A DNA stretch of 64,000 nt from Octopus vulgaris (lineage: Eukaryota), in the NCBI GenBank assembly GCA_951406725.2, contig OX597817.1, positions 19,902,001 through 19,966,000 of the forward strand, read 5' to 3'. The position numbers were made by a program, and so were the translations under genes. A model generated the notes under the pieces. It was not told the DNA's origin and did not search any database. It was given only the letters and a program-made list of their open reading frames with translations. How positions within the stretch are numbered: position 1 is the stretch's first letter; every line of letters starts with the position of its first letter. This document shows positions 16,921 to 55,068 of the stretch, in pieces.

Positions 16921-16958
16921 TCTTTCTGTTGAAGAGCGTAGGCTCGAAACGTTAAAGA
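16921..16958 (+). ncRNA. Minimal type I hammerhead-ribozyme-like motif in a Penelope-type terminal-repeat fragment (about 16660-17057)
   Basis: TCTTT-CTGTTGA-A-GAGC GTAG GCTC-GAAA-CG-TT-AAAGA: stem I TCTTT/AAAGA, stem II GAGC/GCTC, palindromic stem III; core has A6>U. Confidence 0.65.
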
Positions 16959-17076
16959 CTTGTTTTATTTATATTTCCTGAGCGCCATACTAATACAATT
17001 GTTCGTTTGTTTTCCACCTGCCTTCGTCTTTTGTTTATTTTCATAAAGCTTCCCGTTATATACATATATACATATA

Positions 17077-17449
17077 CTAGCAGTATCGCCCGGCGTTGCT
17101 CAGGTTTGTAAGGGAAATAACTATAAAGCATTTTTAGAGAGTTATAGCCAAAAAAATGGAAAAAAAATGATGGTAAATTTTTTTTTTAGTTAAAAAAGGT
17201 GGAGTTGCGTCCCCTAGACAGTTTGCGGTTTGTGTTTCTGATTGTCGACCCCATGTCGAATTTATCGATTTTTTTCAGAACTAGTGGAACTGTTCAAAAT
17301 TTTCGCTGCGTTAGTTTTGAATGATGACATTGGGCTATGTGTGTATCAAGTTTCATCAGAAGCGGTTGAAAGCCGTGGTAGGGTGAGGGTACAAGCAAAC
17401 AGACACACAGAAACACGCACAGACAAACTGCCGTTTATATATAGAGAGA
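17077..17449 (-). mobile_element. Non-autonomous Helitron
   Basis: On the - strand starts TC(TCTCTATATATAAAC) and ends CCTGAGCAACGCCGGG hairpin...CTAG, inserted between A and T with no TSD; removing it restores the SINE sequence ATATATACGACAGGCTTC. Confidence 0.85.
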
Positions 17450-17983
17450 TACGACAGGCTTCTTTCAGTTTCCGTCTACCAAATTCACTCACAAGGCATT
17501 GGTCGGCCCGGGGCTATAGCAGAAGACACTTGCCCAAGATGCCACGCAGTGGGACTGAACCCGGAATCATGTGGTTGGTTAGCATACATGTATGTGCGCA
17601 CGTGTATATGCGTGTACGTTTATGCATGTGCCTGTGTGCAAGCGCTTGTGTGTGTCTGTAACGTGGTCATTTGGTAAAATCGCTGGATTATGTGATGTAA
17701 TACGTTCTGTAATTCCTTTGTCTATCTGAAACTTGAATTCCAATCAATACTGAAGCTAATTTTGCCCCTCAATTTTGGAGATGCTAAAATGTAGCATGTC
17801 TGGGCTAAAGTAGCTCTCACATTTTCCTTTTGTTACACTTCTTGCGTCAGATATGAGAAGAGAGAGTGCTTCTAATAGCTACTACATTGGCACCTTATGG
17901 AATTAGAGAATGCATGAGATATAACCCCCAGTCACACACGATTATGTGACGTACTTTCACAAACAGACGCACACACATACTGC

Positions 17984-18260
17984 CTATCTATCTATCTATC
18001 TATCTATCTATCTATCTATCTATCTATCTATCTATCTATCTATCTATCTATATATCTATCTATCTATCTATCTATCTATCTATCTATCTATCTATCTATC
18101 TATCTATCTATCTATCTATCTATCTATCTATCTATCTATCTATCTATCTATCTATCAATCTGTTTATCTAACTATCTATCTATTTATCTATCTATCTATC
18201 TATCTATCTACCTATCTATCTATCTATCTATCTCACCCTCTTTCGCTATCTATCTAGCCA
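17984..18260. repeat. (TATC)n tetranucleotide microsatellite
   Basis: Directly visible; similar tracts at 31815-31880 and 39910-40105. Confidence 0.97.
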
Positions 18261-18794
18261 TCTATTTACCTATCAGCACATACATACCTCCATACATGCA
18301 TACAGATATATATGACATGTATATATGTATATATGTATGTATGTGTGTGTGATGATGTGTGTGTTGTGTATACTCGTAAATCTGTACAGGGCACTATTAT
18401 ATAGATTCATCTACAGTATAGGCAAACATATAATGAATCAAATTGTAGAGATGCTATTAACAAGAGAGAATTAATACACTGAGTACAGCTGCCGCATATA
18501 AGATACAATCAACGTTTAGGAGAGTAGTCTTTTGCAAATAAAATGTATGGAGGCTGGTGTTCCATCGTAGAAAGACGTGAAGGAAAAGAGAGAATTGATT
18601 GAGCAATGTGGGATGTTACGTAGGGAGTGAATATCCGTGATTTTATCACATTCTACAAGGAAACCAAGTGACGTGGAAGGAAATCAAGTTGTAAAGTTAG
18701 TATGATGTAATTTATGAAGGTGAAAGCGATAGGGAGGTATTATCAATCTTTATAGGAAGAACTGCAGTTAAATTTGTTTCTATATATATATATA

Positions 18795-53700: not shown

Positions 53701-53901
53701 TCCAATTTAGGACAGTAACGATAGATAATCCTGAGCTGATTACAAAAAAGTGTAAATTTATACTGAATCAGTCAATACTAGTGACGAATTTGTATTCGTT
53801 AATCTTTGTGTCTGAAGAACTACATAAGTTGCAGTGCATATATGTATGTATGTATATATATATATATATATATATATATATATATATATATATATATATA
53901 T

Positions 53902-54132
53902 AGTTAATCCAAACATGAAAACACAAAAATACACTACAACGCGAGGACGTGGGACAAGTATAGTATTATTGTACGCTCGGGAAAGAAGGAAAGAAGGAGG
54001 GTTTAACGTTTCGAGCGGAGTTCTTCGTCGGAAACATAGGAGAAGAAAAGATCCAGAGAAGGGAACACAGAGGAAAAAAATCGCCAACGGTACACACGCG
54101 GGAAATGGATGCGTCGAGTTCACTTAATAAAT
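53902..54132 (-). mobile_element. About 230-bp non-coding cassette between two (TA)n tracts carrying a hammerhead-like motif at 54001-54035
   Basis: Reverse strand GTTT-CCGACGA-A-GAAC TCC GCTC-GAAA-CG-TT-AAAC; same architecture and downstream TTTCC.GAGCG...TAATAC as the 16921 motif. Confidence 0.65.
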
Positions 54133-54306
54133 AATATATATATATATATATATATATATATATATATATATATATATATATATATATATATATATATATA
54201 TATATATATATATATATACACATACATACATATATATATATATATATATATATATATATATATATATATATATATATATATATATATATATATACGTATA
54301 GATATA

Positions 54307-54955
54307 TAATTTCAATACAGAGCAAATAATTAACGTAAAATAATTTGTGAAGATATCATTGAATTTGTTATTATCTACTTTAACAATTCAAAAATGTTGA
54401 TAACAGAATCAATAATATCGGCGACTTTAGATCCTCAAGAAGCATTAACTTGCATGAAGGGTTAAAATTAATCACAGGACACAGTATGTCTACTTGCTTG
54501 AAATAGCAGTCAAAACTCTTATTTAAATCACCAAATTACTCTGATAATAACTACAGAAATAAATCGTCCGAAGGCCAACGGGCCAAGACAATCTCTCAGC
54601 ATACATTCAAGTATTTAGACTCACGTGGACCGGTTTCTGGAATAGCATAATAGCGTAACCTTCTTCATCAGTCGTTACAACGAAACAGAGCTCCAATCTG
54701 TCGTGTTGAAGTCTGCGCTGCAGCTGATCCGTTTTGCGCCAAAATCATATTAGCCACCAATGTAAAAATAATTTCAATACGGAGCAAATAATTCATGTGA
54801 AAACATTACTTGCGAAAATATCATTGACTCTTTTATTATCTACTTTAACAATTAAAAAATGATAATCGATAATGTAGGGCCCCAAGAAGCCTTAAATAGC
54901 GTGAAGGATTAAAATTATTTTAGTCTTTCAGCCATTTAATGCTTTTTGAGGGCTT
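54307..54955. repeat. About 160-bp diverged direct repeat (54307-54472 / 54768-54918) plus inverted partial copy (54918-54953)
   Basis: ATAATTTCAATAC.GAGCAAATAATT...TTATTATCTACTTTAACAATT...CAAGAAGC.TTAA...TGAAGG.TTAAAATTA occurs twice; TTAATGCTTTTTGAGG is the reverse complement of CCTCAAGAAGCATTAA (one mismatch). Confidence 0.85.
54623..54676 (-). ncRNA. Hammerhead-like motif with canonical core and weak stems
   Basis: Reverse strand CTGATGA-AGAAGG...TTCCA-GAAA-CCGG-TC; stems I and II are poorly paired. Confidence 0.45.
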
Positions 54956-55019
54956 GCAATCACCTATAACATCGATAAATACCTTAGGAATGAGAACGCA
55001 GGTTCGAAATTTCCCCATG

Positions 55020-55068
55020 ACATCTGATCTGATGAGGGCTGGAGAGTATATCAGACGAAACGTTGTGT
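55020..55068 (+). ncRNA. Hammerhead-like motif with canonical core
   Basis: ACAT(CTGAT)CTGATGA-G-GGCTG GAGAGTATAT CAGAC-GAAA-CG-TT-GTGT; stem II has one mismatch and CTGAT appears duplicated. Confidence 0.55.

Follow-up and report, generated by a model that had tools for sequence, protein, structure and literature searches.

How did eight hammerhead-like ribozyme motifs come to lie within 64 kb of Octopus vulgaris DNA, and do they belong to coding retroelements or to a ribozyme system of their own? The stretch analysed here in full (contig OX597817.1, positions 19,902,001 to 19,966,000; the window) is part of a 2.8-Gb, 227-contig assembly, has a GC content of 34% and holds 54 (TA) tracts of at least six units. 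A previous sequence-only reading had assigned the motifs to the ends of Penelope retroelements and to short non-coding cassettes lodged in (TA)n, and had proposed a retrozyme-like system. Combining genome-wide searches, family alignments and coding links, we find that they are probably minimal type I hammerheads from the 3′ terminal repeats of eight Penelope-like families, five of them linked to coding sequence, and that they were likely written into the genome by Penelope reverse transcriptase (RT). All eight were located on the strands and at the positions at which they had been noted, after which we letter the families (A, 54001; B, 16921; C, 54623; D, 50742; E, 55020; F, 24384; G, 39050; H, 29532):

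16921-16958 (+): hammerhead motif, family B; U at core position 6, stem I of 5 bp, stem II of 4 bp, stem III ACGU
24385-24468 (-): hammerhead motif, family F; decayed, the family majority having a long stem II and an 8-nt palindromic stem III
29529-29567 (-): hammerhead motif, family H; U3-A8 core pair, stem I decayed to 4 of 7 pairs against 7 of 7 in the majority
39050-39092 (+): hammerhead motif, family G; U3-A8 and C4, with GGAA in place of GAAA in the window copy
50741-50777 (-): hammerhead motif, family D; A3-U8 in the majority, C3 facing U8 in the window copy
54001-54035 (-): hammerhead motif, family A; C4 variant with an intact core
54623-54673 (-): hammerhead motif, family C; decayed, the majority having a canonical core and an ACCGGU stem III
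55019-55069 (+): hammerhead motif, family E; canonical core, stems I and II of 5 bp each, a short local duplication preceding the core

Taken alone, these single copies are weak evidence. A strict descriptor recovers two of the eight, against none in each of 40 shuffles of the window, and a relaxed one, which tolerates one core change and requires a palindromic stem III, finds four motifs (three of the eight and another at 42663), where 40 shuffles give 0.15 on average and never more than 2; a loose descriptor yields 4.3 motifs per shuffled window. The hammerhead-like matches at 32560 (-), 42663 (-) and 44249 (+) fit loose descriptors, have no relatives among the loci examined and are probably due to chance. 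No hammerhead was among the 150 Rfam matches listed of 215 for the window, and the matches listed were only microsatellite-driven microRNA ones. As the single copies were modest evidence, we searched the genome with each cassette and examined the best-scoring 25-30 loci per family, the window copy among them (individual loci carry L-numbers).

Each motif proved to be a member of a separate repeat family and to lie near that family's 3′ end. As lower bounds, the first look gave at least 1619 candidates for A, 297 for B, 3254 for C, 1677 for D, 1851 for E, 261 for F, 1052 for G and 1641 for H. When the family sequence is taken as the column majority of aligned copies, it repairs stem-pair or core defects of the window copy in seven of the eight families: stem II is restored in A, E, G and F, stem I in C, H and D, the 3-8 core pair in C, D and F, the GAAA in G and the stem III palindrome in F. 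In the eighth family, B, the window copy has no defects relative to its family, the A6U core being family-wide. The majorities of A, C, D, E, F, G and H hold the NYGANNA core with a Watson-Crick 3-8 pair, GAAA and NUH, and all eight have paired stems I and II, G10.1-C11.1 and a short palindromic stem III. Individual copies that pass all tests (core, stem I, stem II and palindrome) number 16 of 30 in A, 25 of 25 in B when U6 is allowed, 9 of 30 in C, 21 of 30 in D, 14 of 25 in E, 11 of 25 in F, 6 of 25 in G and 19 of 25 in H.

In a background sample of 900 kb of genome drawn at round coordinates, the strict descriptor finds 19 motifs, compared with none in each of six shuffles; if the sample is typical, there would be roughly 60,000 strict motifs genome-wide. 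With two strict motifs in 64 kb, the density of the window is ordinary for this genome. The sequence-only reading had named family consensus sequences and shuffled DNA among its tests and comes through both, with paired stems, cores that are intact except for the U6 of B, and motif counts above shuffled expectation. It was too pessimistic in holding that most copies carry core mutations, as only four (54623, 50742, 24384 and 39050) fail the core test.

The families also differ in how the core is built. The 3-8 pair is C-G in A, B, C, E and F, U-A in G and H, A-U in D and G-C in a family outside the window, so that all four Watson-Crick forms occur among strict motifs, and one copy of the D motif (L249) carries a two-sided change in stem I. 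Position 7 varies among related subfamilies of B, in all of which U6 is constant. Further hammerhead families lie outside the window (L236, L294 and L316; L240 and L243; L309), including the one with a G3-C8 core (three matches in 900 kb) and a U3-A8 family (four matches). At 23600-23760 (+) the window holds a repeat, with 11 matches in the examined loci, whose GAAACG lies upstream of CTGA(A/T)GA in the order of a type II hammerhead; a convincing stem I was not found for it.

Five of the families (those of 16921, 29532, 39050, 50742 and 55020) are joined elsewhere in the genome to Penelope RT-endonuclease coding sequence, and thus most of the cassettes are pseudo-long terminal repeat (pLTR) ends. 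In B, D, G, H and E an open reading frame (ORF) with RT and, at its C terminus, a GIY-YIG domain lies upstream of the hammerhead end. Penelope-type coding sequence stands directly upstream, on the same strand, at 16 of 30 D, 19 of 25 G and 24 of 25 H loci, which makes D, G and H ordinary 5′-truncated elements. The first protein set gave no upstream coding sequence in A (30 loci), C (30) and E (25), and the lone matches for B and F are distant. In the window, the three truncated families are represented by:

29699..31333 (-): family H ORF, 5′-truncated, with RT, CxxC linker and GIY-YIG; bounded by (TA)n at 31334-31469; RVT_1 match with E value 3.8e-8
29414..29700 (-): family H 3′ untranslated region (UTR) and pLTR, followed by (TA)7 at 29400-29413
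38118..38868 (+): family G coding sequence, with decayed thumb, linker and GIY-YIG
38870..39145 (+): family G 3′ end, of which copies end in (TTA)n or (AAT)n
50630..50831 (-): family D 3′ end, the 5′-truncated end of a coding family, followed by (TA)n

Translations of B, D, G and H hold a cysteine linker ahead of GIY-YIG, which is absent in the decayed partner of E; such a linker is a feature of Neptune and Nematis, described in passages of PMC8557442 as associated with microsatellite targets. Among loci in which the end motif was found, (TA)3 occurs within 12 nt of the 3′ end in 24 of 28 copies of A, 21 of 22 of B, 22 of 24 of D and 12 of 14 of H, against a background of 5%; the corresponding counts are 6 of 14 in F, 1 of 10 in E and 0 of 17 in G, whose copies end in (TTA)n or (AAT)n and not in (TA)n. 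Copies of C end in (TA)n or continue into the next unit. Partial pLTR tandems, inverted truncated copies and a short tail are present as well.

Several related observations accompany these families. A second decayed G-type Penelope coding fragment lies at 28246-28646 (-) of the window, and no hammerhead was found downstream of it. A very young TA-targeting Penelope-like family outside the window (L351-L370, for example G000:C2:47173324-47173743; 1284 candidates) has 40 of 40 scored matches 100% identical over 420 bp, some 4271-bp tandems, an intact-looking hammerhead and a 30-40-nt tail, and is likely still active. Another, 58% identical to H (L272), has a TG/TA-rich 3′ UTR of roughly 1.7 kb that is present twice in inverted orientation, and the (TA)n tracts beside it hold several other short nested cassettes.

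Family B links an ORF-less cassette to an intact parent:

16660..17055 (+): family B cassette, part of a 5′ UTR joined at ~16789 to the pLTR of a young, intact TA-targeting element; ORF absent

Compared with coding copies (L221-L228), the cassette shows 99.6% identity in the pLTR and 97-100% in the 5′ UTR. All eight fetched loci carry the RT-GIY-YIG ORF, unbroken in L222 and in L226 (1071 amino acids from the ATG in the latter), and in seven of them the pLTR stands on both sides of it; homologues in the protein database are unnamed proteins with RT, PF26215 and, in some, GIY-YIG annotations. Among 23 distinct B loci, 12 have a 5′UTR-to-pLTR junction, 7 are solo pLTRs (starts within 30 nt) and 4 reach the 3′ UTR. 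The 12 junctions fall at 11 different places, one being shared by L036 and L040; because the junction differs at nearly every locus, we rejected a single internally deleted master as their source. A spliced product was rejected too, since the window junction lacks GT-AG. Where a locus has two junctions (L033/L042 and L034/L041), the two are identical; both of these loci begin within the UTR part and carry two hammerheads 537 and 551 nt apart, which, judged by its anatomy, is the minimal retrozyme layout. The simplest reading would be that RT copied a single ~540-nt RNA more than once round, either as a circle or via end-to-end jumps, and that the repeated junctions are the trace left by such rolling copying of a short RNA, which is likely.

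An older B-type copy with another 5′UTR-to-pLTR junction (L245:5049-4768, -) is separated by 3 kb from the point where a coding B element ends. No RNA data set was listed as containing the B cassette. Contigs from four sequencing runs, guessed to be RNA, accumulate over the B hammerhead with loose ends on both sides, as cross-mapping subfamilies would give, and are uninformative on expression; where loose ends occur at 16789, they agree with the coding element, and none of the contig pieces listed, beyond which there are 1105 more, bridges the window junction.

The remaining cassettes of the window with no coding partner found are the following:

54306..54917 (-): family C, an ORF-less unit of 468 nt present in 1.35 head-to-tail copies that end near (TA)n, with a short inverted piece at 54917-54968
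53903..54101 (-): family A, a pLTR-like cassette of roughly 210 bp between (TA)25 and (TA)42; no other copy seen has a match to 54102-54134
24322..24643 (-): family F 3′ end, with a TG-rich upstream part

Copies of C are 87% identical and show partial tandems and inversions. A choice of 30 C loci made on the 3′ half alone, 12 of them also in the first set, gave 28 that run on into the 468-nt unit and 2 that are truncated; none of these 30 has a Penelope-like ORF within 900 bp upstream. Two hammerheads in direct tandem occur at one of the first 30 loci (L083), and the 900-kb sample holds no match to the family. Family C is our best candidate for something retrozyme-like and for a true non-autonomous family. 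Family A is ~70% like the pLTR of B, has a fixed 3′ end, a clustered 5′ end and 10 matches in the 900 kb, and two older copies have in common a CA-rich, ORF-less upstream stretch of 1.5 kb; similarly, two F copies have more than 0.8 kb of non-coding upstream sequence in common. A and F likely represent either the ends of elements whose 3′ UTRs are long or short masters that arose from such ends. A Penelope-like ORF near family F in L154 was considered as its partner and rejected, as it belongs to an unrelated young family. In the window, 23953..24040 and 24593-24676 are inverted repeats centred on (TA)n that come from inverted element ends and draw spurious Rfam microRNA matches.

Set against these results, the sequence-only reading fares differently from point to point. 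The two motifs said to lie just downstream of Penelope GIY-YIG coding sequence on the same strand (29532 and 39050) do so. That the others have no ORF holds within the window, where this state is mostly the result of 5′ truncation or of short-RNA by-products of coding elements. A location in or near (TA)n is right for 16921, 29532, 50742 and 54001, partly right for 24384 and 54623, and wrong for 39050, with its (TTA)n or (AAT)n, and for 55020, which has no microsatellite target. The idea of several ribozyme families moved by Penelope RT into TA microsatellites stands as to distinct, Penelope-tied families and a strong (TA)n preference in four of them, and fails in that not all target (TA)n. 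Of the suggested non-autonomous families, 54623 looks fixed and ORF-less; 16921, 29532, 39050, 50742 and 55020 are ends of coding elements.

Family E differs from the rest in what opens its terminal repeat. Its window copy has lost that part, and the sequence-only reading did not note it:

54969..55108 (+): family E body, the 3′ part of a Penelope/Poseidon-type terminal repeat; head and (AAT)n missing in this copy

Fuller copies open with a tRNA-like head that bears A and B boxes, followed in order by (AAT)n, the hammerhead and the 3′ end, and in L253 a decayed Penelope/Poseidon-type ORF with no cysteine linker runs into the head. At 30 loci picked on the end of this partner ORF, the body follows in 27 and the head in 26, and the B box is exact in 13. 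Among 46 E body matches not picked on the ORF, in which one locus is counted twice and inverted pairs are counted separately, 19 are headless, 5 start inside the head and 16 start at positions -17 to +8 relative to its first base; 6 more were scored as reaching the UTR, of which 3 were accepted (L095, L129 and L253) and 3 rejected by eye. E thus has a 3′ end in common with an autonomous partner and copies that begin at the head, 16 of them at its boundary compared with 3 that run into the upstream UTR. The 900-kb sample holds about 11 E bodies, 7 heads, all beside (AAT)n and body, and 1 ORF remnant. Pairs of A and B boxes at tRNA spacing, with the box consensus taken from general knowledge, occur 11 times in that sample (3 E heads and 8 other heads resembling those of short interspersed nuclear elements, SINEs) and not at all in three shuffles.

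We lean towards E being a Penelope-driven SINE that would be spread by RNA polymerase III (Pol III). The rival account, to which we give nearly even chances, is that E is a solo pLTR only, in which a dead tRNA SINE lies in a Penelope 3′ UTR and the starts at the head arise by RT folding back at a palindrome, with no part for Pol III. Several results weigh towards the latter: the start site is also a palindrome, about 10 of the head-start copies fold back there into an inverted head, and passages of PMC3846280 describe palindromes at pLTR 5′ ends and self-priming in rotifer Penelope; the headless copies and the imperfect B boxes counted above point the same way, and ARAGORN finds no tRNA in 12 E loci and none at the head when relaxed, with no Rfam match either. 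Against it, about 6 copies start at the head without fold-back, and the start coincides with the expected tRNA 5′ end. A T4 run, the Pol III terminator, is absent from 22 of 25 E bodies and present 2-8 times in representatives of the other seven families, a weak difference given the lower T content of E. One head variant is carried by 10 of 17 copies that start at the head but by 2 of 26 that are linked to the ORF (p 0.0004), suggesting separate masters, though the two sets had been chosen in different ways. The octopus SINE families OK, OR1 and OR2 may include E; no paper was found against which to compare it.

From the anatomy of these copies, together with passages of PMC4209133 and PMC6765202, we infer the following mechanism. 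The endonuclease would nick (TA)n, in the families with a CxxC linker, or other AT-rich DNA, and RT would prime at the pLTR 3′ end in target-primed reverse transcription, often stopping early and so leaving short ORF-less ends, and producing template jumps and fold-backs as well. With its short palindromic stem III, each ribozyme would work only as a dimer, on tandem transcripts; for all six motifs folded, the predicted dimer is favoured by 4-8 kcal/mol over a pair of monomers. Protein-free copies could then arise by three routes. Coding loci of family B would shed a ~540-nt RNA made of the pLTR and part of the 5′ UTR, which RT copies more than once round; in family C, a short unit of this kind would have turned into a fixed master that is moved in trans; and in family E, where the pLTR opens with a tRNA-derived A/B-box module, this module would allow Pol III to make a ~330-nt SINE-like RNA that retains the 3′ end recognised by RT. 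The stronger combined claim, that a Penelope-clade element captured a tRNA-derived Pol III promoter to become a hammerhead SINE with tens of thousands of copies, and that the B junctions record RT rolling round shed short RNAs as a birth step of retrozymes, is tentative, and we put it somewhat short of an even chance.

Family membership, the restored cores and stems, the coding links and the target preferences are observed. Chance matches in AT-rich repeat DNA might have been suspected from the yield of the loose descriptor in shuffled windows and from the failure of six of the eight motifs under the strict one; they are refuted by majorities that repair defects, by the excess over shuffles in the 900 kb and by the position of the motifs near family 3′ ends, and we give them practically no weight. 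A true retrozyme system, in which the ORF-less cassettes are independent non-coding families that cut themselves, circularise and reinsert as tandem arrays, could draw on the fixed unit of C, which wraps past its own boundary in several loci, on the two B loci with two hammerheads, on the junction that L036 and L040 have in common and on a 2026 preprint (bioRxiv 10.64898/2026.07.22.740005) that argues for an origin of animal retrozymes in the pLTRs of Penelope-like elements (PLEs). We nonetheless consider it quite unlikely, as five of the families (B, D, E, G and H) are the termini of coding elements, the B junctions point to no single master, direct tandem hammerheads appear only in L083 among the first 30 C loci with no long arrays seen, and the units of B and C are not unusually self-paired.

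That the motifs persist because the Penelope protein uses them for binding or priming, or ride as passengers, with little cleavage in vivo, is unlikely, though several observations favour it. The young and intact family B has A6U in all copies; PLE minimal hammerheads have low activity in vitro according to passages of PMC4209133; 8 of 9 frog retrozyme dimers failed to cleave in the text compared of bioRxiv 10.64898/2026.07.22.740005; and Naiads are described in PMC8557442, as far as compared, as spreading without canonical motifs. What argues against it is the retention across unrelated families of the 3-8 pair in four forms, G5, A9, GAAA, U16.1 and a non-G 17, while position 7 and the stems vary. 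Our preferred explanation, hammerheads at the ends of PLEs written by Penelope RT and giving rise to short mobile derivatives, has several points to answer. Predicted cleavage in A, B and E falls after GUU. GUU is a poor cleavage triplet. All 25 B copies carry U6, and changes at core position 6 (A6C) give low activity in passages of PMC3088659. The canonical dimer is the minimum-energy fold only in C and D of the six motifs folded. Circular folds of B (-70.9 versus -73.5 ± 4.4) and C (-115.0 versus -108.4 ± 7.6) lie within 1 standard deviation of 40 shuffles and so are not extra self-paired; rolling copying of B was deduced from two loci; no coding partner was found in the top-scoring samples for A (30 loci), C (30 + 30) or F (25); and the numbers of intact copies are skewed upward, having been counted in the best-scoring 25-30 of hundreds to thousands of loci. 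Self-cleavage, circles and Pol III transcription are predictions from sequence.

Hammerheads at Penelope ends are already known, and most of what we describe are additional members in a new host; beyond the textbook are the A/B-box module that opens the pLTR of E, the locus-specific repeated junctions of B and the ORF-less unit of C. Comparisons with published systems were made with passages of the papers cited. The octopus motifs resemble the minimal hammerheads described from the pLTRs of metazoan PLEs by Cervera and de la Peña 2014 (PMC4209133) in their type I layout, a stem I of 4-7 bp, an additional base ahead of stem II, G10.1-C11.1, a stem III that is short and palindromic, the occurrence of U3-A8 as a variant, the presence of many families in one genome and a predominance of single truncated copies; dimer cleavage of such hammerheads is attributed to Lünse et al. 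2017 in PMC6765202. A3-U8, G3-C8 and a clade-wide U6 occur here and were not met in the published passages compared (Lünse 2017 and supplements being outside the comparison). B, D, H and G are like the endonuclease-bearing (EN+) PLEs of Neptune/Nematis type (PMC8557442) in having a cysteine linker (CX2-5CxxC in those PLEs), in targeting microsatellites and in forming partial tandems, truncated copies in inverted orientation and tails that are short; this clade placement is by motif only, and G differs in preferring trinucleotide AT repeats.

Family C and tandem B are similar to non-LTR retrozymes (PMC7229834; bioRxiv 10.64898/2026.07.22.740005) and to non-autonomous Chlamys such as MRC1 (PMC8557442) in being pLTR-related, ORF-less units of a few hundred bases with one type I hammerhead each, arranged head to tail. 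Hammerheads in at least two consecutive units are found at two loci of B and one of the 30 of C, and the loci examined show neither the long tandem arrays nor the strongly self-paired units typical of described retrozymes. Unlike these, the octopus units carry minimal and not canonical hammerheads, mostly comprise 1-1.4 units and are known here from DNA alone, and those of B differ by locus and can be followed base by base back to an intact parent. R2 SIDEs (PMC6765202), which are short R2 derivatives with an internal deletion, likewise lack an ORF, retain a ribozyme along with the two ends and depend on the protein of the parent, but their ribozyme is of the hepatitis delta virus type, their host is R2 and their deletion is fixed, whereas B junctions vary by locus. 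The SMalpha/Sjalpha hammerhead retroposons of schistosomes (PMC6765202, PMC8490949) are, like E, short dispersed repeats in which a Pol III-type promoter sequence precedes a type I hammerhead; E differs in being attached to a Penelope-type ORF in other copies and in its Penelope-style inversions, and in the passages compared of those two papers SMalpha is given no partner that would mobilise it.

Neither a SINE with a tRNA-like head and a link to a Penelope ORF nor PLE hammerheads in octopus were found in the literature searched, which left most subscription papers and Repbase outside. The 2026 preprint covers 35 species and names no mollusc in the text compared, and the main text of PMC13282606 contains neither 'ribozyme' nor 'hammerhead', although its repeat library may already list these families. 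According to the parts compared of PMC7229834, PMC8557442 and the 2026 preprint, the enzyme that mobilises animal retrozymes and hammerhead SINEs, and the role of Penelope hammerheads, are open questions. Octopus offers parents and protein-free derivatives side by side, in one pair 99% identical and with an intact ORF, and the link between them is thus directly testable; the natural series of cores (four 3-8 pairs, U6 and C4) is a ready panel for dimer cleavage assays. If our reading of E is true, the family would give a traceable origin and a mobilising enzyme for ribozyme SINEs of the SMalpha type.

Beside these elements, the window holds a long interspersed nuclear element (LINE) fragment with AP endonuclease and RT domains at 19551-22261 (+), and a similar LINE-like C-terminal piece with no Pfam match at 41220-41750 (-).

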